Made by a program: the position numbers and the translations under genes. The notes beneath the pieces are model-generated. The model ran no database searches, was not told where the DNA came from, and saw nothing but the letters and a program-made list of their open reading frames with translations. Shown here one piece after another: positions 11,154-44,192 of a stretch of DNA of 64,000 nt (the stretch's first letter is position 1; each line of letters starts with the position of its first letter). Source of the DNA: Escherichia coli (GTDB lineage Bacteria; Pseudomonadota; Gammaproteobacteria; Enterobacterales; Enterobacteriaceae); NCBI RefSeq assembly GCF_003019035.1, contig NZ_CP027447.1; one strand, 5' to 3'.

Positions 11154-12161
11154 TTACTTAATCACCCCATTGCGCCGCAGTTGTTCGGTATCTTTTTTCC
11201 AGCGTTCATTAGCCTGGTTGATATCGTCAATTTTCATCAAAATCGCGACTTTTTTACTGTTTATTTCTGAAACTTTCATCGTTAACGGATATTGCCCTTT
11301 TTCGAGCGTTATCCAGTCATCCTGCAATTTACGGCTAAGTTTTTGTGATTGCAGAAAAGTCTGTCGCCGTTGTTCGTTGATATCGAAATCTCGCTTCTGC
11401 TGAATCGGCACTTCATAACACTCTTCACTCTGTTTATGGCATGCCGCAATCGCCGGTTGATAAACCTCTTTGTCATATTTAACCGCGAACGCCTCGCTAT
11501 CGTTCTGTTTATTAAACTCATCACGCTGTTGGTGAATTTTTTTAAAGGCGTCTTCGCGGGTCATTTGCTTACCGTTTGCATCTTTTCCCCAATATGCATC
11601 CGCTGCTTTCTGCGCCGCCACCATTTGCTTATCAAGCGCTTTCACTTCCTTTTCCAGCGCAGGAATCGAGTTCTTCTGGGTATTCAACGCAGTCTCAAGC
11701 TGACTAAAGCGATAATTGAAATCTTCGCTATTCACGATCAGATATTTATTATTCGTTTTGATATCGTCGACCACCCGCCCACGATCGCTGGCTGCCGCCT
11801 GAAAAGAGTAAAAGTTCACCGACCAGCCAGACGCGGGCGTTCCTTTACTGGTTAACATCGCCGAGAATTTTACCGGTTTATCTTTCGTCCAGGTCTGTTC
11901 GAGCAGTTCGTAATCTGCCAACTGACCGACCCAGGTATAGAGATCGTCACTGGAAGAGACATCGCCTTCCGCTGACCAGGTGGCCTGATTACCCTTAGCA
12001 TCAAGATTTTTTAAGGTGATGGCATCAAGCTTGAGAATGCCGTGATACTGCTTTTTGAATTGATCTTTTAAGATATTTTCAGTTGGCGGTTCGCCATCTG
12101 CCCAGACATTACCAGTCATCAACATAAGCAGCGCCGTGCCAACAATCCATTGCTTTTTCAC
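11154..12161 (-). CDS. yggM: Exported protein YggM (DUF1202)
   Basis: 335-aa ORF with signal peptide; conserved neighbour of ansB. Confidence 0.7.
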   Translation of the reverse strand: MKKQWIVGTALLMLMTGNVWADGEPPTENILKDQFKKQYHGILKLDAITLKNLDAKGNQATWSAEGDVSSSDDLYTWVGQLADYELLEQTWTKDKPVKFSAMLTSKGTPASGWSVNFYSFQAAASDRGRVVDDIKTNNKYLIVNSEDFNYRFSQLETALNTQKNSIPALEKEVKALDKQMVAAQKAADAYWGKDANGKQMTREDAFKKIHQQRDEFNKQNDSEAFAVKYDKEVYQPAIAACHKQSEECYEVPIQQKRDFDINEQRRQTFLQSQKLSRKLQDDWITLEKGQYPLTMKVSEINSKKVAILMKIDDINQANERWKKDTEQLRRNGVIK

Positions 12162-12244
12162 CCGAAAACCCTCGCGCGGAATAATTTATTTCGGTGATTA
12201 TCATCAGGGTAATAAAAATTGGCAATGGACGTAAGTCTGAAGTG

Positions 12245-12270
12245 AAAAAGCCCCGGCACGATACCGGGGC
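12245..12270 (-). terminator. Rho-independent terminator downstream of ansB
   Basis: GC hairpin gccccggcacgataccggggc followed by a T-run on the minus strand. Confidence 0.6.
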
Positions 12271-12277
12271 GAGGTGA

Positions 12278-13324
12278 TTAGTACTGATTGAAGATCTGCT
12301 GGATCTGCTGCGGATCTTTGGTTTGCGTCAGAGCCAGTTGCAGCAGAACGCGCGCTTTTTGCGGGTTCAGCGTGCCAGAGGCGACGAAGCCGTATTTTGC
12401 ATCATCCACTTCAGCATCCTGAGTGGTAGCGCCCGTCGGTACGCGGGAAGAACGCACGACTGCAGTGCCGTTTTTCGCAGCGGTTGCCAGGGTGTCGAAC
12501 ACGGATTTATACAGGTTACCATTACCCACACCAGCGCTAACGATGCCATCATAGCCCGCATCTACCAGTGCTTTAGCCGGAAGATCGGATGCGTTAGCGT
12601 AGTTATAAACGATGCCGACTTTCGGCAGCTCATTCAGCTTAGAGACATCGAATGGCGTATCGCTGGTGTGCTTACGTGCCGGGGTACGTTGGTAGTCAAT
12701 CTTACCGTTGTGAATGTATCCCAGAGGACCATAGTTAACAGACTTGAAGGTCGCTACGTCGGTGGTGTTGGTTTTGGTGACATCGCGACCGTCCAGTACG
12801 GTGTCGTTCATCACCACCAGCACGCCACGATTAGCGGAGGCTTTATCAGCTGCGGTCACTACCGCGTTATACAGGTTGAATGGACCGTCTGCGCTCATGG
12901 ACGTGGACGGGCGCATTGCGCCGACCATCACCACCGGTTTGTCGCATTTCACCGTCAGGTCGAGGAAGTAAGCGGTTTCTTCCATCGTGTCGGTACCGTG
13001 GGTAATGACGAAGCCGTCGGTTTTATCGCAGTCGGTGTTAATTTTTTTCGCCAGTGTCAGCCAGACATCATCGTTCATGTCCTGGGAGCCAATATTCACT
13101 ACCTGCTCGCCTTTAACGTTCGCAATGTCCTTCAGTTGCGGCACCGCATTAACCAGATTTTCTACGCCAACTTTACCCGCTGTGTAGTTAGATTTGGTTG
13201 CGGAGTCACCACCACCGGCAATGGTCCCGCCGGTTGCTAAAATGGTGATATTGGGTAATGCCAATGCTGCACCACTAAAACCCATAACCAGTGCGGCAAG
13301 TGCCGTCTTTTTGAAAAACTCCAT
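12278..13324 (-). CDS. ansB: L-asparaginase II (periplasmic)
   Basis: 348-aa ORF with signal peptide and TGGTIAG motif. Confidence 0.9.
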   Translation of the reverse strand: MEFFKKTALAALVMGFSGAALALPNITILATGGTIAGGGDSATKSNYTAGKVGVENLVNAVPQLKDIANVKGEQVVNIGSQDMNDDVWLTLAKKINTDCDKTDGFVITHGTDTMEETAYFLDLTVKCDKPVVMVGAMRPSTSMSADGPFNLYNAVVTAADKASANRGVLVVMNDTVLDGRDVTKTNTTDVATFKSVNYGPLGYIHNGKIDYQRTPARKHTSDTPFDVSKLNELPKVGIVYNYANASDLPAKALVDAGYDGIVSAGVGNGNLYKSVFDTLATAAKNGTAVVRSSRVPTGATTQDAEVDDAKYGFVASGTLNPQKARVLLQLALTQTKDPQQIQQIFNQY

Positions 13325-13499
13325 TTCATTCCTCCAGTTACGTGAACGCTACGCATTATCCCTTAGCTTTGTATGGGAAATTTGACGTTAAACAATTTAC
13401 AACGTGAATATATTTTGGAGATCTACAAAGTTAGAGGCAGGTAACAAAACGAAGAATTAAACGGCATAAAAAAGTATTATGCCGTCTTAAAATAGAGGA

Positions 13500-14219
13500 T
13501 TATTTTAAATTCCCGACCAGGGCTTTGCGACTATCTTCCAGAGTCACAACGCGGCTACAAACATCTTTGCCAAACTGTTGGAAATCTTTTTCCTGCTTTT
13601 TCCATTCGCTTTGGATTGAGGATTGCAGACCGCCCAGGCTTCCCAGCACATTCTGTAATGGGTTACCGCCGCTTTTCAGCACCGCTTTCGCGCCCATTTC
13701 ATTAATGCTGTCCTGTAAAATTCCGCCCATTGCCTGATTCACTAATTGCTGGCCTTCGGCGCGAACCTGATCAATGGCTTTATAGTGGAACGTCAGGCCA
13801 TCGCTGCGCGTTTCGATAATGCGGTTCATCTGCTCTTTCAGCTGCGCATCAAGTTTGGTCAGACGGCTGCGCATTTTGCTGCTTTCGCCCATCTCCTGAA
13901 CGATAATTTTATCCAGCGCAATACGGGCTTTCTCGACGCGGCTTTTCGCGCCTTCATCAATCCACGGCAGGGTGCTACGTAGTTCAGCCTGATAATCCTT
14001 CGCCTGCTCGCGCTGGGCGGCATTCAGGGAATATTGCTTACCGTTATACATCACGTTGCCGTCTGGCGTGATCACCAGATTGCCGTTTTCGCCCTTCACC
14101 TGCACGGTTTGCGGGCTGACAATCACATCGTCACGCGGCGTGACGCTGCACTGGTAGTCGGCGTGAGCGGTCATTGCCGTCACTGAAAGTGCTGCCGCCA
14201 GCAGCATTTTGCGCATCAT
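13500..14219 (-). CDS. yggN: Exported protein YggN (DUF2884)
   Basis: 239-aa ORF with signal peptide; conserved position. Confidence 0.7.
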   Translation of the reverse strand: MMRKMLLAAALSVTAMTAHADYQCSVTPRDDVIVSPQTVQVKGENGNLVITPDGNVMYNGKQYSLNAAQREQAKDYQAELRSTLPWIDEGAKSRVEKARIALDKIIVQEMGESSKMRSRLTKLDAQLKEQMNRIIETRSDGLTFHYKAIDQVRAEGQQLVNQAMGGILQDSINEMGAKAVLKSGGNPLQNVLGSLGGLQSSIQSEWKKQEKDFQQFGKDVCSRVVTLEDSRKALVGNLK

Positions 14220-14290
14220 AGTCTTCCCTCAAGAACAAATCAGGCCAGCATTTGCTGGCCCCAGATTGATAACAAAGTGCGCGTTTTCCA

Positions 14291-14371
14291 TGCCGGATGC
14301 GGCGTAAACGCCTTATCCAGCCTACTCGATCGTGCATCTTTATAGGCCTGATAAGCGTAGCACATCAGGCA
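14291..14371. repeat. REP element pair
   Basis: gccggatgcggcgtaaacgccttatcc and gcctgataagcgtagcacatcaggc motifs. Confidence 0.65.
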
Positions 14372-14402
14372 GTTTTGCATTTGTCATCGCCCGTATGCTT
14401 TC

Positions 14403-14729
14403 TTAGTCCCACCAAACGTCGAAAAGTTCGCTGGTGCGTACCTCGCCCAGTTTGCGCTCTTCCAGCCACTTACGCACAATCGCCTGATGTTCTTCGGTGC
14501 ATTTGCCGATTTCCTGCATGCAGATCAGACCTTCCCAGGCCAGATAACCGCTGCCGTCAAAGGCCAGTTTGTTCGGTTCGATAACCTCGTTAATAAAGTC
14601 ATCAACGGTTTTATCAATCTGTTCTTCCGATGTACCTTCCGGGAATCGCCATGCCACCGAAAATCCTAATTCCTGGAATTCGTCGATGTGCATTTTTTTA
14701 CGCAGACGACGGCTACGGTTCTTTGCCAT
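14403..14729 (-). CDS. yggL: DUF469 protein YggL
   Basis: ORF 14403..14759; likely start at [12 protein letters not shown], overlapping the trmB stop by 1 nt. Confidence 0.75.
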   Translation of the reverse strand: MAKNRSRRLRKKMHIDEFQELGFSVAWRFPEGTSEEQIDKTVDDFINEVIEPNKLAFDGSGYLAWEGLICMQEIGKCTEEHQAIVRKWLEERKLGEVRTSELFDVWWD

Positions 14730-15448
14730 TATTTCACCCTCTCGAACATTAAGTCCCATACTCCGTGACCAAGACGATGACCACGTTGTTCAAATTTCGT
14801 CACCGGACGTGATGCCGGACGCGGTACGTAATCATTGCTCTCTGACAGGTTTTTATAACCGTCAATAGAAGACATCACTTCAAGCATATGTTCCGCATAA
14901 GGTTCCCAGTCGGTCGCCATATGGAATACGCCCCCCAGTTGCAGTTTGCTTTTTACCAGTTCGGCAAACGGCACCTGAACGATACGGCGTTTATTATGGC
15001 GCGCTTTGTGCCACGGGTCAGGGAAAAAGAGCTGCACCATGCGCAATGAATTGTCAGGAATCATTTTATGCAGCACTTCAACCGCATCGTGACACATCAC
15101 GCGCAGGTTGCTTAAGCCCTCTTCATGCGCAGAAGCCAGGCACGCACCAACGCCCGGTGAATGCACTTCAATGCCGAGGAAGTCCTGCTCGGGGCGATCT
15201 TTAGCCATTGCCACCAGCGACGCCCCCATGCCGAAACCAATCTCAAGCGTCACCGGCGCTTCACGGCCAAAAAGCGCAGGGAAATCCAGCATATCTTCGC
15301 TGAACTCAACGCCCATCACCGGCCAGTAGTTTTCCAGCGCATGTTCCTGGCCTTTGGTCAGTCGCCCCTGGCGGCGCACAAAACTACGGATACGGCGCAG
15401 CGGGCGGCCGTTTTCATCAAATTCCGGTGAGATGACGTCGTTTTTCAT
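14729..15448 (-). CDS. trmB: tRNA (guanine46-N7)-methyltransferase
   Basis: 239-aa ORF, SAM-dependent methyltransferase. Confidence 0.85.
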
Positions 15449-15608
15449 AAAGATTTAGTCGCTTGTGAAAGTGTTCTGAAAACGGGCATTATCCAAAGTT
15501 AGTTGCCGGATGCAAGCATGATAAGGCCGTGGCTGCGGAAAGTTCCGGTTTACACCCTGCCGTCGCTGTGCTGCAATCTTGCCCCCAACAACAGTGAATT
15601 CGGTGACC

Positions 15609-16661
15609 ATGCAAGCGTCGCAATTTTCAGCCCAGGTTCTGGACTGGTACGATAAATACGGGCGGAAAACGCTGCCCTGGCAAATTGACAAGACGCCCTA
15701 CAAAGTATGGCTCTCAGAAGTGATGTTGCAACAAACTCAGGTTGCGACCGTTATCCCCTATTTTGAACGCTTTATGGCGCGCTTCCCAACGGTGACCGAT
15801 CTCGCCAATGCGCCGCTCGACGAAGTTCTCCACTTGTGGACCGGGCTTGGCTATTACGCCCGCGCGCGCAACCTACATAAAGCGGCACAACAAGTGGCGG
15901 CCTTACACGGCGGTAAATTCCCGGAAACCTTTGAGGAAGTTGCAGCACTGCCAGGCGTCGGGCGTTCCACCGCAGGCGCGATTCTCTCGCTTTCTCTGGG
16001 TAAGCACTTTCCGATTCTCGACGGTAACGTCAAACGCGTGCTGGCGCGCTGCTATGCTGTAAGCGGCTGGCCTGGGAAAAAAGAGGTCGAGAATAAACTA
16101 TGGAGTTTGAGCGAGCAGGTGACGCCCGCGGTCGGCGTGGAGCGGTTTAATCAGGCGATGATGGATTTGGGCGCGATGATTTGCACGCGCTCGAAGCCGA
16201 AATGCTCGCTCTGTCCGCTACAAAACGGGTGTATTGCCGCCGCCAACAATAGCTGGTCGCTTTATCCGGGCAAAAAACCAAAGCAGACGCTACCGGAGCG
16301 CACGGGTTACTTTTTACTGTTACAGCACGAAGATGAAGTATTGCTGGCGCAGCGTCCGCCGAGCGGATTGTGGGGCGGTTTATACTGTTTCCCACAGTTT
16401 GCCGACGAAGAAAGTTTGCGGCAGTGGCTGGCGCAACGGCAGATTGCTGCCGATAACCTGACGCAACTGACCGCGTTTCGGCATACCTTCAGCCATTTCC
16501 ACTTAGATATTGTGCCTATGTGGCTTCCCGTGTCGTCATTCACCGGCTGCATGGATGAAGGCAATGCGCTCTGGTATAACTTAGCGCAACCGCCGTCAGT
16601 TGGCCTGGCGGCTCCCGTGGAGCGTTTGTTACAGCAGTTACGCACTGGCGCGCCGGTTTAG
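15609..16661 (+). CDS. mutY: Adenine DNA glycosylase
   Basis: ORF 15579..16661; start [20 protein letters not shown]; HhH and Fe-S (CxxxxxxCxxC) motifs. Confidence 0.85.
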
Positions 16662-16685
16662 CGCGTGAGTCGATAAAGAGGATGA

Positions 16686-16964
<279 letters not shown>

Positions 16965-17001
16965 AAACAGTGCCGGAGCACGCCTCCGGCAACTTGCATA
17001 A

Positions 17002-18108
<1,107 letters not shown>

Positions 18109-18309
18109 TTCCACTAACCGCCCCTGACGATGCTCAGGGGTAAAAATGTTATCCACATCACAATTTCGTTTTGCAAATTGGGAATGTTTGCAATTATTTG
18201 CCACAGGTAACAAAAAACCAGTCCGCGAAGTTGATAGAATCGCATCATCTCGCACGGTCAAATGTGCTTTTTCAAACACTCATCCGCATCACGATGTGAG
18301 GAAATTAAC

Positions 18310-19566
18310 ATGAATCTTAAGCTGCAGCTGAAAATCCTCTCTTTTCTGCAGTTCTGTCTGTGGGGAAGTTGGCTGACGACCCTCGGCTCCTATATGTTTG
18401 TTACCCTGAAGTTTGACGGTGCTTCTATTGGCGCAGTTTATAGTTCACTGGGTATCGCCGCGGTCTTTATGCCTGCACTGCTGGGGATTGTGGCCGACAA
18501 ATGGTTAAGTGCGAAATGGGTATATGCCATTTGCCACACCATTGGCGCTATCACGCTGTTCATGGCGGCACAGGTCACGACGCCGGAAGCGATGTTCCTT
18601 GTGATATTGATTAACTCGTTTGCTTATATGCCAACGCTTGGGTTAATCAACACCATCTCTTACTATCGCCTGCAAAATGCCGGGATGGATATCGTTACTG
18701 ACTTCCCGCCAATCCGTATCTGGGGCACCATCGGCTTTATCATGGCAATGTGGGTGGTGAGCCTGTCTGGCTTCGAATTAAGCCACATGCAGCTGTATAT
18801 TGGCGCAGCCCTTTCCGCCGTTCTGGTTCTGTTTACCCTGACTCTGCCGCATATTCCGGTTGCTAAACAGCAAGCGAATCAGAGCTGGACAACCCTGCTG
18901 GGCCTCGATGCATTCGCGCTGTTTAAAAACAAGCGTATGGCAATCTTCTTCATCTTCTCAATGCTGCTGGGCGCGGAACTGCAGATTACCAACATGTTCG
19001 GTAATACCTTCCTGCACAGCTTCGACAAAGATCCGATGTTTGCCAGCAGCTTCATCGTGCAGCATGCGTCAATCATCATGTCGATTTCGCAGATCTCTGA
19101 AACCCTGTTCATTCTGACCATCCCGTTCTTCTTAAGCCGCTACGGTATTAAGAACGTAATGATGATCAGTATTGTGGCGTGGATCCTGCGTTTTGCTCTG
19201 TTTGCTTACGGCGACCCGACTCCGTTCGGTACTGTACTGCTGGTACTGTCGATGATCGTTTACGGTTGCGCATTCGACTTCTTCAACATCTCTGGTTCGG
19301 TGTTTGTCGAAAAAGAAGTTAGCCCGGCAATTCGCGCCAGCGCGCAGGGGATGTTCCTGATGATGACCAACGGCTTCGGCTGTATCCTCGGCGGCATCGT
19401 GAGCGGTAAAGTGGTTGAGATGTACACCCAAAACGGCATTACCGACTGGCAGACCGTATGGCTGATTTTCGCAGGTTACTCCGTGGTTCTGGCCTTCGCG
19501 TTCATGGCGATGTTCAAATATAAACACGTTCGTGTCCCGACAGGTACACAGACGGTGAGCCACTAA
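18310..19566 (+). CDS. nupG: Nucleoside:H+ symporter
   Basis: ORF 18262..19566; start MNLKLQLKILSFLQF; MFS-like. Confidence 0.85.
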   Translation: MNLKLQLKILSFLQFCLWGSWLTTLGSYMFVTLKFDGASIGAVYSSLGIAAVFMPALLGIVADKWLSAKWVYAICHTIGAITLFMAAQVTTPEAMFLVILINSFAYMPTLGLINTISYYRLQNAGMDIVTDFPPIRIWGTIGFIMAMWVVSLSGFELSHMQLYIGAALSAVLVLFTLTLPHIPVAKQQANQSWTTLLGLDAFALFKNKRMAIFFIFSMLLGAELQITNMFGNTFLHSFDKDPMFASSFIVQHASIIMSISQISETLFILTIPFFLSRYGIKNVMMISIVAWILRFALFAYGDPTPFGTVLLVLSMIVYGCAFDFFNISGSVFVEKEVSPAIRASAQGMFLMMTNGFGCILGGIVSGKVVEMYTQNGITDWQTVWLIFAGYSVVLAFAFMAMFKYKHVRVPTGTQTVSH

Positions 19567-19575
19567 TTACGCAAA

Positions 19576-19610
19576 GAAAAACGGGTCGCCAGAAGGTGAC
19601 CCGTTTTTTT
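19576..19610. terminator. Bidirectional rho-independent terminator between convergent nupG and speC
   Basis: aaaaacgggtcgccagaaggtgacccgttttttttt: hairpin flanked by an A-run and a T-run. Confidence 0.65.
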
Positions 19611-19615
19611 TATTC

Positions 19616-21751
19616 TTACTTCAACACATAACCGTACAACCGTTTCATGCCATCCGCATCGGTTTCGCTATAAACACCTTGCAGCTCCGGCGAAAATCCC
19701 GGCAACAAATTCACCCCTTCTTCCAGCGCAAGGAAATAACGCTGGACAGCCCCGCCCCAGACTTCCCCGGGCACCACGCAAAGCACGCCAGGGGGATAAG
19801 GCAAAGCCCCTTCTGCCGCAATTCGCCCTTTGGCATCACGAATCCGCACCAACTCCACTTCACCGCGAATATAAGCGCTATGCGCGTCCTGGGGGTTTAT
19901 CACCACTGACGGGAAACTCTGCTGGCGGAACATCGCTTTTTGTAGGTCTTTGACGTCGAAACTGACATACAGATCGTGCATCTCCTGACACAACTGGCGC
20001 AAGGTGTAGTCGCGATAGCGCACCGGATATTTGTTATAAACGCTCGGCAACACCTCAGCCAGCGGCGAGTCATCCTCAATATGCTGTTCAAACTGCGCCA
20101 GCATCGCCACCAGTTGTGCCAGCTTCTCGTGGCTTTCCGCCGGAGTTAATAAGAACAGAATGGAATTGAGATCGCACTTCTCCGGCACAATGCCGTTCTC
20201 ACGCAGATAGTGCGCCAGAATCGTCGCCGGAACGCCAAAGTCGCTATATTCGCCAGTTTCGGCATTGATACCTGGTGTAGTGAGTAACAGCTTGCACGGA
20301 TCAACAAAATACTGATCCGCGGCATATCCTTCAAAGCCGTGCCACTTCGCCCCCGGCTCAAAACTGAAAAAACGCCGGTCGCTGGCTAACACTGACGTCG
20401 GATATTCCTGCCACAATTTGCCATCAACAACGGGCGGGATAAACGGGCGGAACAGCTTACAGCGCGCAAGAATAGCCTTGCGCGCTTCAATCCCTATCTC
20501 AACGCACTCCGCCCACAGCCGACGCCCACTCTCCCCTTCATGAATTTTGGCGTTAACGTCCAGCGCGGCGAACAGCGGATAGAACGGGCTGGTAGAAGCA
20601 TGGAGCATAAAGGCATTATTCAACCGCTTATGCGGGCAAAAACGCGCCTGTCCACGGATATGGTTATCTTTTTTATGGATCTGCGACGTCTGTGAGAATC
20701 CCGCCTGCTGTTTGTGCACCGACTGGGTCACAAAGATCCCCGGATCGTTTTCGTTAAGTTCTAACAGCAGCGGCGAGCTATCCGCCATCATCGGGATAAA
20801 CTGTTCGTAACCGACCCACGCGGAATCAAACAGAATGTAATCACACAGATGCCCAACGGTATCGATCACCTGACGGGCGTTATAGACAGTGCCGTCATAG
20901 GTTCCCAGCTGAATAATCGCCAGGCGAAACGGGCGCGGCAACTCAGCTTTTTCTGGCGCAACGTCGCGAATTTGCTGGCGCAGATACTCTTCATTAAAAC
21001 AGTGCGCATCAATACCGCCAATGAAACCAAACGGGTTACGTGAAGCTTCCAGATAGACCGGCGTCGCCCCCGCCTGAATCAGCGCGCCGTGATGATTCGA
21101 CTTATGGTTGTTACGGTCGAAGAGCACCAGATCGCCACGCGTTAACAGCGCATTCGTCACCACTTTATTCGCTGCCGATGTGCCGTTCAGCACAAAATAG
21201 GTTTTATCGGCATGAAAGACTTTGGCTGCGAATTTCTGCGCATCTTTCGCCGATCCTTCATGAATAAGCAGATCGCCCAATTTTACGTCAGCATTACACA
21301 TATCGGCGCGAAAGACGTTCTCACCAAAGAAATCGTAAAAATGGCGTCCGGCAGGATGCTTTTTAAAGAACGCACCATGTTGATGCCCAGGGCAAGCAAA
21401 GGTGCTGTTGCCCATCTCAACGTACTGCGTCAGCGTGTCATAAAACGGTGGCAGCAAATTCTCTTCATACTGACAGGCTGCGGATTCCAGCTCCAGCCAC
21501 TGCTGCTCGTTGCCGTTGATTACCGCCGTAACGCCCGCAGGTAATTCAAAAGCATGTTCGGAATACAAAAACACCGGTAGATGAAAACCGGTGCGCTTAA
21601 GCAACGCAAGAATGCCACTGCGACTATCCGCAGCGGTAATGACGACTGCCGCGACGTCCGTAAAATCAGTATCTCCCAACGCCACCACGCGGCGATGAGT
21701 AGAAAGTCGGGATACCAGTTCACTACTGGCGGCAATATTCATTGATTTCAT
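19616..21751 (-). CDS. speC: Ornithine decarboxylase (constitutive)
   Basis: ORF 19616..21835; likely start at MKSMNIAASS; PLP-dependent decarboxylase family. Confidence 0.85.
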   Translation of the reverse strand: MKSMNIAASSELVSRLSTHRRVVALGDTDFTDVAAVVITAADSRSGILALLKRTGFHLPVFLYSEHAFELPAGVTAVINGNEQQWLELESAACQYEENLLPPFYDTLTQYVEMGNSTFACPGHQHGAFFKKHPAGRHFYDFFGENVFRADMCNADVKLGDLLIHEGSAKDAQKFAAKVFHADKTYFVLNGTSAANKVVTNALLTRGDLVLFDRNNHKSNHHGALIQAGATPVYLEASRNPFGFIGGIDAHCFNEEYLRQQIRDVAPEKAELPRPFRLAIIQLGTYDGTVYNARQVIDTVGHLCDYILFDSAWVGYEQFIPMMADSSPLLLELNENDPGIFVTQSVHKQQAGFSQTSQIHKKDNHIRGQARFCPHKRLNNAFMLHASTSPFYPLFAALDVNAKIHEGESGRRLWAECVEIGIEARKAILARCKLFRPFIPPVVDGKLWQEYPTSVLASDRRFFSFEPGAKWHGFEGYAADQYFVDPCKLLLTTPGINAETGEYSDFGVPATILAHYLRENGIVPEKCDLNSILFLLTPAESHEKLAQLVAMLAQFEQHIEDDSPLAEVLPSVYNKYPVRYRDYTLRQLCQEMHDLYVSFDVKDLQKAMFRQQSFPSVVINPQDAHSAYIRGEVELVRIRDAKGRIAAEGALPYPPGVLCVVPGEVWGGAVQRYFLALEEGVNLLPGFSPELQGVYSETDADGMKRLYGYVLK

Positions 21752-22122
21752 AAGCGCAAAACCCGTTTCGGGGAAGTAAGAATACCGGACAAGGTGAAAA
21801 ACCCTGCCCCACGAGATATGGGTCAAACTGGTCACCAGCTCCGACCGCCAGACATCAGTAAAAGCAGAAACGCTCTGATTTTACTGTTGTCCTGCAGTGA
21901 GCGTGCGTTAACCTCACCGCATGAGCAGAAAAAGGGAGGAGTTTAGCGCGAAACAGCGATAAGCGAGAGAATGTAAGGAGGTGGCGTGCATCGGGCAAAC
22001 TCCGTACAGAGAGGAGAAAATTCGCGCAATCATGGCACCTTTCACCAGAGCGTGCAAGCCAGGACTTTGCGAACAAACAAGCCATCGAAGGAGCCAAACG
22101 GTCATAATAAGAAAATCAGACA

Positions 22123-22851
22123 ATGCAGCTAACAGGAACTCTTGTGGTCATCGGTCCTTTTATCAACGCAAGTGCAGTATTACTGGGTGGCGTTCTCGGT
22201 GCACTCCTTAGTCAACGCTTACCGGAACGTATCCGCGTCTCCATGACATCAATTTTTGGTCTGGCATCGCTGGGGATTGGTATTTTACTGGTGGTGAAAT
22301 GCGCCAACCTTCCGGCGATGGTTTTAGCAACCTTACTCGGTGCATTAATCGGCGAAATTTGTCTGCTGGAAAAAGGCGTCAATACCGCGGTCACCAAAGC
22401 ACAAAATCTGTTTCGCCACTCACGTAAGAAGCCAGCGCATGAATCTTTTATTCAGAATTATGTCGCGATTATTGTCCTGTTTTGCGCCAGCGGCACCGGG
22501 ATCTTCGGGGCGATGAACGAAGGGATGACCGGCGATCCGAGTATTTTAATCGCCAAGTCATTTCTCGATTTCTTTACGGCGATGATCTTCGCCTGCTCGC
22601 TGGGTATTGCGGTGTCGGTGATTAGCATTCCATTACTGATCATCCAGTTAACGCTGGCGTGGGCTGCCGCGCTGATATTACCGCTGACCACACCGTCGAT
22701 GATGGCAGACTTCAGCGCTGTAGGCGGTTTATTGCTGCTGGCAACCGGATTACGCATCTGCGGCATTAAAATGTTCCCGGTGGTCAACATGCTTCCAGCA
22801 CTCCTTCTGGCAATGCCGCTTTCCGCCGCCTGGACCGCCTGGTTTGCCTGA
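22123..22851 (+). CDS. yqgA: DUF554 inner-membrane protein YqgA
   Basis: 242-aa hydrophobic ORF immediately upstream of pheV. Confidence 0.7.
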   Translation: MQLTGTLVVIGPFINASAVLLGGVLGALLSQRLPERIRVSMTSIFGLASLGIGILLVVKCANLPAMVLATLLGALIGEICLLEKGVNTAVTKAQNLFRHSRKKPAHESFIQNYVAIIVLFCASGTGIFGAMNEGMTGDPSILIAKSFLDFFTAMIFACSLGIAVSVISIPLLIIQLTLAWAAALILPLTTPSMMADFSAVGGLLLLATGLRICGIKMFPVVNMLPALLLAMPLSAAWTAWFA

Positions 22852-22956
22852 CAATGCGTGCAATAGCGGCAAAGTGATGATAGATTGTGCAGTCTGCAGT
22901 AAATTGAAGAAATTTGATTGACGAGACGAGGCGAATCAGGTTTAATGCGCCCCGTT

Positions 22957-23032
22957 GCCCGGATAGCTCAGTCGGTAGAGCAGGGGATTGAAAATCCCCG
23001 TGTCCTTGGTTCGATTCCGAGTCCGGGCACCA
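22957..23032 (+). tRNA. pheV: tRNA-Phe (GAA)
   Basis: Exact cloverleaf sequence gcccggatagctcagtcggtagagcaggggattgaaaatccccgtgtccttggttcgattccgagtccgggcacca. Confidence 0.9.
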
Positions 23033-23043
23033 CTATTCTAAAG

Positions 23044-23068
23044 AACCCGCCCACAAGGCGGGTTTTTG
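23044..23068 (+). terminator. Rho-independent terminator of pheV
   Basis: cccgcccacaaggcggg hairpin followed by ttttt. Confidence 0.6.
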
Positions 23069-23181
23069 CTTTTGGATCTTTATATAAAATAAACTTGGGA
23101 GCATAACGCCATCAGGTCTTAAACACTACCGAATCATCAATAAACATCCCCCGTTAACAAAACACAGTTCAGTTCACATAA

Positions 23182-23412
23182 CATCCCTGTTATCCCACAC
23201 ATATCTGCTGGCCGAACGACGCCAGTGCGCGTACGGAGGCAAGAGCAGCCCTGCACATGGCAGCGCTTGTGGTAACCTGGTTTAATCCGGTGATAAAGGC
23301 GTTTTACATGCATCTGTCAGCAGCCGGAAAAACCAAAAAAGTGGCGCTGGTTGACTGTATGCGTAAATTGCTGACCATCCTGAACGCAATGCTCAGAAAG
23401 AACGAAGAGTGA
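23182..23412 (+). pseudogene. 3' fragment of an IS110-family transposase gene (remnant)
   Basis: Open frame translating ...ARTEARAALHMAALVVTWFNPVIKAFYMHLSAAGKTKKVALVDCMRKLLTILNAMLRKNEE*, resembling the conserved C-terminus of IS110/IS116/IS902 transposases; no N-terminal catalytic domain present. Confidence 0.55.
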
Positions 23413-23419
23413 AATGAAT

Positions 23420-24220
23420 CGTAGCATCATGTTGCTCCATAATTATTACGTTCAAGACAGTTGATTATCGGCGCATATGACTCAAAAAGAGCCTGATGAT
23501 TGCCTCTTTTCCATAGGCTCTTTCTCTGAAGTGAAGGAAGGCCCGGAAGAAAGCACTCGCTGGCATACGTGACTCCAGCTCAACCAGAGATAATCACCAT
23601 TGTTATTTTTCTATTTAATAATAATCTCCTGAAAAATAGATATAGCAAAAATACAATCCGGCCAGATTTAATTCCGCATTCATTACCAGAAATAATCAAC
23701 ACCACAACTATCATATCATTCAATAGTCACCGCTAAAATTTTATTATTTTCTTCTTCTTTACATAGAAATTGTCAACTTGTTTATTATACCGTTCTTAAA
23801 TAGTTAATCATAAAACAACATCACCATTATTTACGTGTTTTATTTATTAATAACATGGTCATACGTTCTTTTTTCACGAGGAAATAATCAATTGATAAAT
23901 TGTTTTTGGTCTTAATAGTCAAGTAGGAAACATTTTAATAAATGATAAAAATCCTAAATTCCTTGTTCATAATGTAGGGGTGTGTTAAATAGGTGGGCAA
24001 AATTTGGTTCCCCTTCTCGCCTGTAATATTGCAGCATCTTCGCACCTCCATGAGACATTGCGACTTAATAAGAAGGTGATAAGTCCTGCATATAAGCATG
24101 GACTGACCATGGTTTTATATTCATTAAAAAATTTGTTACAACCCATTGATTTAGCATAAATAAATTATAGTGGGTTCGGGTTTGTTGTGACTGTGGCATT
24201 ATTTCCGTGCAAAGGAGCTG
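23420..24220 (+). promoter_or_regulatory. AT-rich upstream region of kps region 1 (expected promoter region of kpsF)
   Basis: Very AT-rich non-coding stretch directly upstream of kpsF; group 2 capsule region 1 is known to be driven from a promoter upstream of kpsF with H-NS/IHF/SlyA input; exact promoter not mapped here. Confidence 0.4.
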
Positions 24221-24222
24221 AT

Positions 24223-25206
24223 ATGTCTGAAAGACATTTACCTGATGACCAGAGCAGTACTATCGATCCATATCTAATTACCTCTGTTCGCCAGACTCTG
24301 GCAGAACAAGGCGCAGCATTACAAAACTTGTCTAAACAACTGGATTCCGGGCAGTACCAGCGTGTCCTTAATTTGATAATGAACTGTAAAGGGCACGTTA
24401 TTCTTTCGGGAATGGGTAAATCAGGGCATGTCGGTCGTAAAATGTCAGCGACGCTGGCCTCTACGGGTACGCCTAGTTTCTTTATTCATCCTGCAGAAGC
24501 TTTCCATGGCGATCTGGGCATGATTACGCCTTACGATCTTCTGATCCTTATTTCTGCCAGCGGTGAAACGGATGAAATCCTCAAGCTAGTTCCTTCACTG
24601 AAAAATTTCGGCAACCGAATTATCGCCATTACCAATAATGGAAATTCCACGCTGGCGAAAAATGCTGATGCCGTGCTGGAACTCCACATGGCGAATGAAA
24701 CCTGCCCGAATAATCTTGCACCAACAACGTCTACCACGCTGACGATGGCGATCGGCGATGCGCTGGCGATTGCCATGATCCACCAACGCAAATTTATGCC
24801 GAATGATTTTGCGCGCTATCACCCGGGCGGTTCATTAGGACGTCGCCTGCTGACCCGCGTTGCTGATGTCATGCAGCATGATGTTCCTGCGGTACAGCTG
24901 GATGCGTCATTTAAAACCGTGATTCAACGTATCACCAACGGATGCCAGGGAATGGTGATGGTAGAAGACGCAGAAGGTGGGCTAGCGGGCATTATCACCG
25001 ACGGTGACCTGCGTCGCTTTATGGAAAAAGAGGATTCTCTGACATCCGCCACGGCTGCGCAGATGATGACACGTGAACCGCTGACGCTACCGGAAGACAC
25101 CATGATCATTGAAGCGGAAGAAAAAATGCAAAAGCACCGCGTCTCAACGTTATTGGTGACCAACAAGGCAAATAAAGTCACTGGCCTTGTGCGCATTTTC
25201 GACTAA
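24223..25206 (+). CDS. kpsF: Arabinose-5-phosphate isomerase (capsule region 1)
   Basis: ORF 24187..25206; SIS and CBS domain composition; start MSERHLPDDQ. Confidence 0.85.
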   Translation: MSERHLPDDQSSTIDPYLITSVRQTLAEQGAALQNLSKQLDSGQYQRVLNLIMNCKGHVILSGMGKSGHVGRKMSATLASTGTPSFFIHPAEAFHGDLGMITPYDLLILISASGETDEILKLVPSLKNFGNRIIAITNNGNSTLAKNADAVLELHMANETCPNNLAPTTSTTLTMAIGDALAIAMIHQRKFMPNDFARYHPGGSLGRRLLTRVADVMQHDVPAVQLDASFKTVIQRITNGCQGMVMVEDAEGGLAGIITDGDLRRFMEKEDSLTSATAAQMMTREPLTLPEDTMIIEAEEKMQKHRVSTLLVTNKANKVTGLVRIFD

Positions 25207-32330: not shown

Positions 32331-33092
32331 TTATTTAAAATTCTGATTGTATCTATCAATAAGTATCTCATCATTACATAAATACGTATCAACAAATGAT
32401 TCTATACGAGAAACTGAAATACGCTCAGATGTATCATTAGAACCGTGATTCATAATATAGCAAACAACTGGAGTCTTCATAGCTAATACACTTCTTCCGA
32501 ATGCCAATGAAGATTCTGGATATTTTGTATGGTCTTTTAGTGAAAATAGAAATGTCCCTTTCTCTTCCTGATTTGAACAATCCTTGGCATCTAACTTAGA
32601 TATAAAACAACTACCACAATTTTTATAGAATATCTTTGTAACTCCATCAAGGTAAGCGATCTTCTCCCTGCGGGCATCAAACACATAACCTGTATAAAAT
32701 GCCAGATCATCAGCATCAGGATTTCGGGAAAACATATATTCTACTTGATAAGTGAAATCTTTGGATACCAGATCATCTGCATCAATAAACATGAAATAGT
32801 CACCAACTTTTGCAGTTTCGAGTATTTTTCGACGCGCGACATTTTTTTTTGATGCTTTGTCTGCCATGTAACCATTTTTATCTTCCGGGACGGGATGCCA
32901 GACTTTGATAAACTCAGTCCGTGGATTCTGATATCCACTTATAAACTCAGGAATGTCATGACATGCAACGACAATGCGATAGTCGCCACCCGCCCCCTCA
33001 ATTGACTTGATTGTAGCTTCCAGTCGAACGCAAACTTCATTCCAATCGTTAGAAGTCTGTTTTGCCCTGAGTGGGATTGCATAATGAAACAT
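32331..33092 (-). CDS. Putative glycosyltransferase or capsule-modifying enzyme (DxD motif, FIDADD)
   Basis: 253-aa ORF, AT-rich, between kpsS and kpsT; DADD motif suggests nucleotide-sugar transferase; function inferred only. Confidence 0.45.
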   Translation of the reverse strand: MFHYAIPLRAKQTSNDWNEVCVRLEATIKSIEGAGGDYRIVVACHDIPEFISGYQNPRTEFIKVWHPVPEDKNGYMADKASKKNVARRKILETAKVGDYFMFIDADDLVSKDFTYQVEYMFSRNPDADDLAFYTGYVFDARREKIAYLDGVTKIFYKNCGSCFISKLDAKDCSNQEEKGTFLFSLKDHTKYPESSLAFGRSVLAMKTPVVCYIMNHGSNDTSERISVSRIESFVDTYLCNDEILIDRYNQNFK

Positions 33093-33171: not shown

Positions 33172-33837
33172 CTAGGTAATATTCTCTTCTTCAGTGTATT
33201 TTTTTATGGCCTGTTCAACATCGTCATAATAATGAATAGCATTATCTCTACCCAAAAAAAGCGCAACATCACAGTATTCTTTTAATGAGTTAAGGCTGTG
33301 CGAAACCATAACAAAATTAGATTCAGAACGCCTAGCTTTAAATATTTTTGCACATTTCTCTCTAAATCGAGCATCACCAACCGCGGTAATTTCATCGACC
33401 AAATAGTAATCAAATTTGAACGCCATGCTTAATCCAAATCCTAGACGAGATCGCATCCCTGATGAATAAGACTTGATCGGCATATCAAAATATGTACCTA
33501 ATTCCGAAAATTCTTCTACAAAATTAATTTTTTCTTTAAGATCTTTTTTATCTGCATATAAACGCGCTACAAACTTTACATTTTCCCTTCCAGTCAGACT
33601 TCCTTGAAAACCACCAGAAATTCCAACAGGCCAAGAAATAGTTTTGTTTGTATAAACGGCCCCCTTGTCTGGTCTATCTATACCACCTATTATACGAAGA
33701 AGAGTGGATTTACCTGCTCCATTACGTCCAAGTAGCGCAATACTTTTACCACTTGGTAATTCAACATTTAAATCTTTAAATACATAATGTCGTCCTTGTG
33801 GTGTGAGATATGATTTAGTTAAGTTTTTAATTATGAT
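33172..33837 (-). CDS. kpsT: Capsule ABC exporter ATP-binding protein
   Basis: ORF 33172..33897; Walker A GRNGAGKST, ABC signature YSSGMRSRL, Walker B YYLVDE; likely start at MIIIKNLTKSY. Confidence 0.8.
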   Translation of the reverse strand: MIIKNLTKSYLTPQGRHYVFKDLNVELPSGKSIALLGRNGAGKSTLLRIIGGIDRPDKGAVYTNKTISWPVGISGGFQGSLTGRENVKFVARLYADKKDLKEKINFVEEFSELGTYFDMPIKSYSSGMRSRLGFGLSMAFKFDYYLVDEITAVGDARFREKCAKIFKARRSESNFVMVSHSLNSLKEYCDVALFLGRDNAIHYYDDVEQAIKKYTEEENIT

Positions 33838-34035
33838 CATAAAGTTAATAACACCTTGTGTATTGCTATACAATATAGGAACTCCGCATCTACCCAAGCA
33901 GTGATAAAAATAGGCCCATTATAAATGTTTTATAAATTTTAATTATAGGGAAACACATTAGAATGGGCCATGTAAATTATCGATACATCATCATAATTAA
34001 CAGTTTGGGCGTCATGACTCCCTTTAATTATACAA

Positions 34036-41822: not shown

Positions 41823-42599
41823 TCATGATGTCAGCATTGCCTCTTCACGCGTTCGGTATAACGCCAGACCGATGAACAGGGTGACCAGAGTGAACATTGC
41901 AAGGTAGTTTAGACTCACGCCTTCGCTGATATAGCCAGGCATAACTGCCTCGCGGCTTAACTCTACGACATGCACTAATGGATTCCAGAGTAGATATGAC
42001 CAGTATTGCTTCGGAATCGAGTGTAGAGGGAACATGATGCAGGAGATGAAATACAGCGGCTTAAGCAGTATCGGCAGGACCTTTTGCATTTCAGGGAAAG
42101 TCTTACCAACGACCATGAATATTAAGCCAACGCCACATGAAAGAATGATTAACAAACTCCAGGTAAGCACAAGTTGTAAAAAGTTTGTTATTTCGAAATA
42201 TTCGCCTGCCATCCAGACAATAAGCATAAGCAATATATAAACAGCAACATAAATCAGTGTCTCAAGCAATGCACGCGCAATGATCGTATCGATGGGTTTT
42301 ACTGGTCGATAATTAAACAGCCCCTGATTCGCTTCAATAGCACCTACAGAACGATTGCTGATACTGCTAAAGATAAAAAAGGGAATCAGGCCATTAAGTA
42401 AAAACACCGGGAATGAGATGTCTGGCATCGTGCGGTGCATAATGTAACCAAAAATGCCCAACAGTATCAGCAAATGCGCAGAGGGTTCGAGAATCGCCCA
42501 CAGATATCCCAGACGGAACTTACCAAAGCGTGTTCGTATTTCTCGTAGAAATAATGCCTCTACGGTGACTTTCTGGACTTCAAATCCACTTCTTGCCAT
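41823..42599 (-). CDS. kpsM: Capsule ABC exporter permease
   Basis: ORF 41823..42659; start MARSGFEVQKVTVEALFLREIRTRFGK; ABC-2 permease. Confidence 0.85.
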   Translation of the reverse strand: MARSGFEVQKVTVEALFLREIRTRFGKFRLGYLWAILEPSAHLLILLGIFGYIMHRTMPDISFPVFLLNGLIPFFIFSSISNRSVGAIEANQGLFNYRPVKPIDTIIARALLETLIYVAVYILLMLIVWMAGEYFEITNFLQLVLTWSLLIILSCGVGLIFMVVGKTFPEMQKVLPILLKPLYFISCIMFPLHSIPKQYWSYLLWNPLVHVVELSREAVMPGYISEGVSLNYLAMFTLVTLFIGLALYRTREEAMLTS

Positions 42600-42630
42600 T
42601 TGATGATGTGATCCTAATCTCTTCAGGTAC

Positions 42631-42642
42631 GCTACCGCCCTT
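42631..42642 (-). promoter_or_regulatory. ops (operon polarity suppressor) / JUMPstart element for RfaH-dependent antitermination
   Basis: Minus-strand sequence GGCGGTAGCGTA about 30 nt upstream of the kpsM start; matches the ops core GGCGGTAG known upstream of kpsM. Confidence 0.6.
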
Positions 42643-43637
42643 GGCTTAACAGCTACCAATACACTGGAGGTAATGCTTATTTGTAACTGGATAAAATTTA
42701 CTCAGACGGTTTGACCTTTTTAATAGCCGCAAAAAATTTCAGCAGAAATTATTTCCGCAGGGATAAATAGATCTATTTCCGTCTCGTTTCTTCTAATCCA
42801 TTCTTCAGGCATGAATGTATTCGGTCTTCTGGTAATTTCAGAAAACTGGCCGTTTTAGAATGTAGAGTTAATTTCTCAGGAAATTATTTTTTGTTCTTAC
42901 TGTTAACTACTTGATTATAATACCCCATATGGATTTTATGCGTAACAATACCTGCAATCTGTTTCAAACCAGAACGCATGCGATTGATTACCAATAAATT
43001 GTTTAGCGAGAAACTATTTCCCTATTTAAAATTCACTCATGTACTTCTTATTTATATCTACAGCACCCTCTTTACAGTCACATTTGTGATTTACATCACA
43101 TTTAAACGGTGTTATTTAAGCCCCATTAATAATTCCGTGAGTAATTATTTTCGTCAATTAAAATATACATCTTGATTATTTTGTGCGTTTATTTTAACCA
43201 GCGTTACAGCCAGCATTATCCCTCAGTAGATATACCTGAGCAGACATTTCTTAAAATCGACGAATAGTTTCCCTGGAAATTATTATGCTTATTTGAAATT
43301 CCCTTTCTGATTATCTCCAGTAATTTTACTAATTTCCAGGCTACACAAAATACAGATCACATAAGAATTATCCTATATGTTTTGACCTATCAATTGTTAC
43401 TCAATGATTTATTACAACTATTAATAATCATAATGTGTCAAAACACTTAAGCATCTTTACAGTCTTAGAAAGGTGTCGATTAACGAAGGCTACATGGTGA
43501 AAAACAGGTTCCTTCAGTGTTACCGAATATTCCGTGGTGGTCTGGAGGGAGATAATTCTTGCTACATCGAAACTCAGCCCGGTGAGCGGGTTTGACAGTT
43601 CCGCACTCACCATTGGGCTAAGGGTTATCAGGTGGGG

Positions 43638-44192
43638 TTAAGGAAATGGCAATACCTCCCCCCGTCCAAACTCCAGTCGCTGCACATTCACCATCCCAGG
43701 CTTCTCAGCAGCACTGACATCAATTTGTGTCACCCGCAGCGCATATTTTTCATCCAGTGCGTTTAACCAGTTCAGCAGGTCATTAAACACCACAGGTTCT
43801 ATCCAGACTTGAATATTCTCCCCTCGCTCGGCTATTCGCTTAATGACCACTGAATGCGCCGAAGCACTGTCGCTGATGACCCGCGATACCTGTGCTGGCG
43901 TTGTCGTGGCGGATTTTCGCGCCGCAATAATATCCGGCGCAGTGCTCTTCAGTCGCGCGTTCATCGCCACGAGCTGCTGCAACATCGTCTCCTGTTGTTC
44001 TATCCGTTCGCTCAACGGCTGCCAGATGAGGACGTAATATCCGGCGCTAAACAGGAACACTACCGCTGCCAGTAACATGCCTTTTTCACGCGGAGAACGT
44101 CCCGCCAGGTGTTGTGTCAGCCAGTGTTCGCCACGGCTTAACTGGCGTTCACGCCATTGCTGAAAATAGTGAATAAATTTATCGCGTAACAT
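43638..44192 (-). CDS. gspM: Type II secretion system protein M
   Basis: 184-aa ORF, single TM segment, last gene of the gsp operon. Confidence 0.75.
   Translation of the reverse strand: MLRDKFIHYFQQWRERQLSRGEHWLTQHLAGRSPREKGMLLAAVVFLFSAGYYVLIWQPLSERIEQQETMLQQLVAMNARLKSTAPDIIAARKSATTTPAQVSRVISDSASAHSVVIKRIAERGENIQVWIEPVVFNDLLNWLNALDEKYALRVTQIDVSAAEKPGMVNVQRLEFGRGEVLPFP

Follow-up and report, generated by a model that had tools for sequence, protein, structure and literature searches.

How did a group 2 capsule locus of Escherichia coli come to lie directly beside a tRNA gene that genomic islands use as a landing site, and did the tRNA have any part in it? We addressed this question in a window of 64,000 nucleotides, the whole stretch of DNA that was analysed here (assembly GCF_003019035.1, contig NZ_CP027447.1). 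Upstream of pheV the window contains speC and yqgA (DUF554), and downstream of it kpsF, kpsEDUCS, a serotype-specific region, kpsM, yghD/gspM with the remaining genes of the beta type II secretion system, sslE and glcA. This corresponds to the classical group 2 capsule locus that E. coli carries near pheV. A first-pass annotation of the interval between pheV and kpsF (23033–24222) had proposed that it is the junction of an old, fixed pheV island with decayed mobility genes, which contains only a truncated IS110-like transposase end and AT-rich DNA, and no integrase. For the present study, the composition, the boundaries and the genome distribution of the interval were computed, while the data about binding to and activity of the capsule promoter region PR1 were taken from the literature.

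Results and Discussion

pheV encodes tRNA-Phe(GAA) at 22957–23032 on the plus strand (ARAGORN; Rfam tRNA, 68 bits). It is the single tRNA that ARAGORN finds in the window, and an Rfam scan of 22800–24400 returned nothing but this tRNA above threshold. The last 22–23 nt of the gene (23010–23032) are the attachment core for islands with a P4-type integrase. On the same strand follows a core chromosomal flank of 46 bp (23033–23078), which contains the intrinsic terminator of pheV with its hairpin at 23041–23067, detected by a scan as a terminator-like site, and then a T-run. K-12 is identical to the window over 46 bp beyond pheV, including the terminator, and diverges after GGATC at 23078. Thousands of capsule-negative genomes lose the match at exactly this base (23078/23079). 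Additionally, a 29-nt hairpin is present 7–9 bp after tRNA-Phe at 10 loci of other Enterobacterales, including Citrobacter, Enterobacter, Kosakonia and Leminorella. Because the hairpin is kept behind tRNA-Phe in these other Enterobacterales, the 46-bp flank is core DNA. At four other loci the hairpin was seen without a tRNA-Phe in the sequence stretch examined. In Morganella morganii (NZ_CP066129.1, 2141–7108), 4.9 kb separate tRNA-Phe from the conserved terminator hairpin, which points to a small insertion, in a distant genus, into the corresponding attachment site. The part of the flank at 23033–23045 exists in two alleles, CT-ATTCTAAAG in the window and CTAATTCTTAAG as the K-12 type, and both are present among the kps-positive strains.

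In about 87% of the kps-positive genomes, an island with an integrase is situated between pheV and a 22–23-nt pheV' repeat. In FDAARGOS_497, for example, a tyrosine integrase is located 200 bp after pheV and is followed by a 66.5-kb island, which terminates in the pheV' repeat TTCGATTCCGAGTCCGGCACCA immediately ahead of the same 46 bp and the IS110 relic described below. The arrangement of the window, where yqgA and an unbroken pheV lead directly to the relic, is found in only 208 genomes; in the remaining relic-positive genomes the match sets in with the attachment core, whose first base is 23010. The pheV pathogenicity islands (PAI-V type, with the P4-like integrase intB and 22-bp repeats) use the attachment site that is present in the window, and in the island strains the pheV' repeat precedes the same 46-bp flank that follows pheV here, only that in the window the island is absent. 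This matches the "intact pheV, no PAI" configuration of Arredondo-Alonso et al. 2023 (PMC10272209), who describe both pheV configurations together with the 22-bp repeats, report repeated excision of the island and state that an integrase is lacking in the cps locus. Because the islands insert between pheV and the 46-bp flank, pheV is in our window an empty site beside kps and not the kps junction. The pheV' repeats vary by island: besides the 22-nt TTCGATTCCGAGTCCGGCACCA we also saw TTTCATTCCGA(G/T)TCCGGGCACCA, which suggests, as far as the repeats tell, that different island families use the site.

Within the window itself we detected no integrase. In colinear genomes PGAP annotates nothing but core genes on the upstream side and kps, gsp, sslE and glc genes on the downstream side, so that the "no integrase" of the first-pass annotation holds for the whole window. 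The distal copy of the pheV 3' end, which had been suggested as the mark of the far island boundary, was not found: the search of the window gave a single occurrence of the pheV 3' end, even when 3 mismatches were allowed.

We next describe the segment that contains the capsule genes. It spans 23079–43658 (20.58 kb), has a GC content of 40.7% compared to 48.2% for the window, and stands in place of about 105 bp of the K-12 pheV–yghD site. Capsule-negative genomes match the window again only from 43659. The kps-type right junction was found in 1,533 of 5,426 genomes, and both junctions are identical in about 1,530–1,550 genomes. At the right junction (43638–43660), the stop codon of yghD is replaced and six codons (EVLPFP) are added. 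The gene itself, gspM of the beta type II secretion system, is located at 43638–44192 on the minus strand (Pfam T2SSM; K-12 comparison), and its product ends in ...RLEFGRGEVLPFP in kps-positive strains compared to ...RLEFGRG in K-12. No direct or inverted repeats flank 23079–43658; we obtained AT-rich matches at chance level only. The comparison of the pheV flanks among lineages therefore gave a mixed outcome for the earlier proposal: the junctions are indeed fixed, but kps DNA sets in only at 23079, instead of directly behind the tRNA.

Could kps nevertheless have been carried by a classical pheV-integrated island that has lost its integrase and distal repeat by erosion, with the IS110 tail as the remnant of its mobility genes? 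The site adjoins a tRNA, older literature places kps in a composite pheV island, and two properties of tRNA islands are indeed seen for kps, namely the atypical GC content (40.7% versus 48%) and the presence/absence polymorphism. An integrase next to the tRNA, a distal repeat and foreign DNA that starts at the tRNA 3' end are, however, not found. The core sequence that runs 46 bp past the tRNA already contradicts such an island, the window contains no pheV repeat, and intact islands sit between pheV and the very same flank and leave kps outside. Moreover, an IS110 transposase is not an island integrase. We consider this explanation very unlikely, and the earlier idea of a pheV island with decayed mobility genes is not supported in the form in which it was put forward.

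The IS110 assignment itself proved correct. When the translation of 23182–23412, the fragment listed in the first-pass annotation, was aligned to IS110-family transposases, as had been suggested there, significant similarity was obtained: it matches residues 251–311 of an intact 321-aa transposase with 79% identity over 61 aa (BLASTP, E = 7e-30). This intact relative, WP_000056792, carries the DEDD_Tnp_IS110 and Transposase_20 domains. The relic translation also matches 1,472 plasmid records (tblastn, E ~1e-22) and positions 281–342 of the 343 positions of NCBIfam NF033542 "IS110 family RNA-guided transposase" (E = 8e-9). The match to Pfam Transposase_20 (PF02371, positions 60–86) is weak and under the curated cutoff (E = 0.017), because just the last 27 profile positions, the final third of the domain, survive in the relic. 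In the complete RefSeq genomes that we inspected, PGAP lists 23230–23412 as "IS110 family transposase, incomplete, missing N-terminus". In the literature that we searched, we found no description of an IS110 relic upstream of kpsF.

While the fragment is real, its limits had to be corrected. For the DNA alignment we used two mutually independent copies, one from the chromosome of strain SL124 and one from the plasmid pCFSAN004179G. Protein homology begins at about 23227 and DNA homology at about 23243, not at 23182, and the DNA homology reaches about 23465, which is 53 bp past the stop of the reading frame, up to the 3' terminus of the IS. This terminus ends with "...CAAGACAGTTG", and in the three-way alignment the sequences of the window, SL124 and pCFSAN004179G diverge right after it. 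The relic accordingly covers 23243–23465 on the plus strand and corresponds to the last ~223 bp of a ~1.15-kb element. The SL124 and pCFSAN004179G copies share 1,151 bp, namely 158 bp of left end, the transposase gene and about 24 bp of right end, showing that the window retains just the last ~19% of the element. These are the closest copies that we found: the element on the E. coli plasmid pCFSAN004179G is intact (WP_000056792), and the SL124 copy has an internal stop in its transposase gene. The relic has 87% nucleotide identity to the chromosomal copies and has the 3' terminus in common with them. In other E. coli genomes, similar IS110 copies are annotated next to a gene for a "putative zinc ribbon protein".

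The transposase frame of the relic is not intact, because it is truncated at the 5' side and ends in a premature TGA (23410–23412). Intact copies have a TGG at this position, 10 codons ahead of the native stop, so that a nonsense mutation is present in addition to the truncation. The RuvC-like DEDD domain (PF01548) occupies residues 9–155 of the intact relative, and homology to the window begins only at residue ~251; the catalytic domain is absent from the window. The IS110 5' terminus and the ~158-bp left end are missing from the relic as well. In IS110-type elements the guide RNA is encoded in the left end. Compared to an intact IS110-family element, the relic hence lacks the DEDD domain, the left end and the guide-RNA region and, judged by what is left of it, it cannot transpose.

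How old is this relic? It is carried by about 1,500–1,620 of 5,426 complete E. coli genomes, and the last 23 nt of pheV, the 46-bp flank and the relic are found together in 1,549 of the 5,426. We aligned eight intervals from other strains, including an ST131 strain and duck, marsupial, dog and human isolates, with the island present or absent. The truncation point, the TGA and the IS 3' end are identical in all eight, with 98–100% identity over the relic and the surrounding orphan DNA. As all sampled lineages have this truncation and this premature stop in common, the relic is old and fixed, which supports the "old, fixed" acquisition of the first-pass annotation.

Such conservation raises the question of whether the relic was co-opted, either as a small protein (51-codon ORF, 23257–23412) or as an element that regulates or insulates PR1 from a distance. 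The 98–100% conservation across the eight intervals and the ~1,550 carrier genomes would fit to this, but the relic is conserved no better than the adjoining orphan DNA, it has no RNA family match in Rfam, and the published control elements of PR1 are all located at or beyond 23773. In addition, the kpsF operon is intact in strains that lack part or all of the relic. We regard co-option as extremely improbable. The zone between pheV and PR1 (23117–23668) is repeatedly targeted by IS insertions and deletions in other strains. We saw breakpoints with IS600 at the equivalent of 23123, with ISEc22 at 23438 and, on a plasmid, with IS5 at ~23600, all with an intact kpsF operon. With IS1 at 23117 the operon is lost and the deletion extends into region 2, while for ISEc10 at 23668 the operon was not seen in the sequence stretch examined. 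The IS600, ISEc22 and IS5 variants with their intact operon argue that 23079–23600 is dispensable. From the decay and these natural deletions we infer that the relic and its flanks (23079–23772) are functionless passengers.

On both sides of the relic lies DNA with little to identify it. The left piece, the orphan segment at 23079–23242 (164 bp), is the left edge of the kps segment and was found in E. coli only linked to kps. We considered it as the left end of an internally deleted IS, whose terminus would then coincide exactly with the kps junction, but rejected this because it does not resemble the left end of either related copy. The right piece, at 23466–23772, is a spacer without a recognisable feature (GC content 48% over 23466–23600 and 27% over 23601–23772); it gave no Rfam family and no homologue outside of kps contexts. 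The IS probably inserted into this DNA at some time in the past. For the orphan segment and the spacer, no plasmid or phage homologue was found except two kps-carrying records.

The relic is only 164 bp away from the left kps junction, and we therefore asked if an IS110-family element was the vehicle, so that guide-RNA-directed recombination brought kps beside pheV and most of the IS was deleted later. In another strain IS-flanked kps has indeed moved to a plasmid, although the element there is an IS5. IS110-family elements move as simple elements via circular intermediates, and none is known to carry a cargo of 20 kb. The right junction has neither another IS copy nor an IS end, the 164 bp that separate the left junction from the relic do not resemble the IS left end, and the orientation of the relic points its right end, and not a junction-forming end, to kps. 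This scenario is in our view very unlikely. Similarly little credit can be given to the idea that the relic is a fossil of the placement of kps beside pheV, for example by an IS110-type guide-RNA-directed capture of a circular kps-bearing molecule. If true, it would provide a concrete mechanism for the unexplained origin of a capsule locus without integrase. No evidence ties the IS110 relic to the arrival of kps.

Finally, we turned to the AT-rich DNA in front of kpsF. The GC content is only 26–27% over 23601–23996 compared to 48% for the whole window, so the AT-rich character noted in the first-pass annotation is correct. That the interval holds only this DNA and a transposase end is not: the pheV terminator (23041–23067) and the characterised PR1 region had been omitted. 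kpsF (24223–25206, plus strand; Pfam SIS and CBS, PGAP KpsF/GutQ) is the first gene of capsule region 1 (kpsFEDUCS). The IHF site, the EMSA primers and the PR1 promoter positions of strain UTI89 were taken from Jia et al. 2017 (PMC5738388). The IHF site TTACAACCCATTG is found exactly and once in the window, at 24136–24148. The EMSA primer that begins at +46 has an exact single match at 24042, and the primer that finishes at +224 has an exact single match at 24220. The exact matches of the IHF site and both primers fix the +1 position of PR1-1 at 23997, which is 225–226 bp before the ATG of kpsF, as published. The 5'-UTR with its three tandem promoters consequently occupies 23997–24222 on the plus strand (exact UTI89 oligonucleotide matches), and the transferred starts of PR1-2 (+132) and PR1-3 (+181) fall on 24128 and 24177, both on the plus strand (PMC5738388). 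Upstream of it, the regulatory region at 23773–23996 (plus strand, GC 26%) contains, judged by position, the H-NS/SlyA-protected sites I (−224 to −134, 23773–23863) and II (−121 to −79, 23876–23918), and H-NS site III is at 23997–24028, all with coordinates transferred from PMC8960920. The two studies report binding of H-NS, SlyA and IHF, and PR1 transcription that depends on temperature and growth phase (PMC5738388, PMC8960920). The window shares the IHF site, the EMSA primer sites and the +1-to-ATG distance with PR1 of group 2 capsules (K1 in UTI89, K5), and we detected no difference to UTI89/K5 in the UTR. By its sequence identity to the experimentally studied strain, the AT-rich DNA at 23773–24222 is the experimentally characterised PR1 region and not decayed filler. 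A consensus promoter scan was uninformative: it gave 4 sites with 4.5 expected and missed the published PR1 promoters.

Across lineages, no other piece of the interval diverges as much as the upstream part of PR1 (23773–23996), in which the H-NS/SlyA sites I and II are located. This part shows 9–15 differences in 224 bp (4–7%), compared to 1–2% for the relic, the spacer and the UTR, and this hints at distinct promoter alleles.

A few observations were made in the wider capsule locus. In group 2 capsule loci the textbook order is kpsM-kpsT-region 2. In the window, the genes for a kpsT-like ATPase and for kpsM (ABC-2 permease) (33172–33897 and 41823–42659, both on the minus strand) are split by about 7.9 kb of serotype-specific genes, comprising galactosyltransferase-related and CgeB-like genes, wecB, wecC and a gene for a 920-aa glycosyltransferase. 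Another glycosyltransferase gene (32331–33092) follows after kpsT. Strain SCU-301 shares this split layout, of which a variant occurs in 1428 and FDAARGOS_497. The 187-kb IncFIA plasmid unnamed2 of E. coli HNSQ2209 (NZ_CP137739.1) contains complete kpsFEDUCS and kpsMT at 10976–24173, with an IS5-family element adjoining the equivalent of ~23600 and with kpsMT oriented like region 1; this looks like an IS-mediated capture of the capsule locus. Another plasmid record, NZ_LR890315.1 ("Klebsiella oxytoca plasmid 4", 29 kb, circular, non-mobilizable), contains the distal end of a pheV-type island, the relic and the kps cluster. Its island end is of the E. coli type and its IS110 relic has 100% amino-acid identity. 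The record is probably a contamination or misassembly, or possibly an excised circle.

Conclusion

In summary, we showed how the interval between pheV and kpsF is built. It is a composite of five unrelated pieces, next to a kps segment that very probably entered a single time without a tRNA-targeting integrase, with pheV as a separate landing site. The first piece is the 46 bp of core chromosome that end pheV transcription, and the second the 164 bp of orphan DNA. The third is what remains of an IS110-family element of ~1.15 kb, namely its dead 3' fifth, in which the C-terminal ~61 codons and the 3' terminus are kept, whereas the DEDD domain for catalysis and the left end are gone and an extra nonsense mutation has been gained. 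A spacer of ~300 bp is the fourth piece, and the fifth is the ~450-bp PR1 region, which is expected to drive kpsFEDUCS via H-NS, SlyA and IHF in response to temperature and growth phase. The kps segment would have entered the pheV–yghD intergenic site once and may later have spread by descent and by homologous recombination of the conserved flanks. For islands with an integrase, pheV would remain a landing site that can be used repeatedly; in this strain it is empty. The direction of the insertion and the ancestral state of the pheV–yghD site are deduced, and the K-12-type genomes could in principle instead be deletions; the terminator-hairpin scan of the genome collection recovered other Enterobacterales only and no Escherichia outgroup.

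The arrangement of the interval is ordinary, already annotated and largely published, and the use of the refined map (terminator, orphan piece, IS110 tail, spacer and PR1) is limited to annotation hygiene. The kps locus should, however, not be called the cargo of a decayed pheV island. The capsule genes are located beside, and not inside, the pheV attachment site. Two consequences follow, both of which have been described before: because they are beside it, the capsule and the pheV islands are inherited and lost independently, and because kps is outside of the attachment site, the transfer of the capsule between lineages has to rely on homologous recombination of the flanks and not on site-specific integration.
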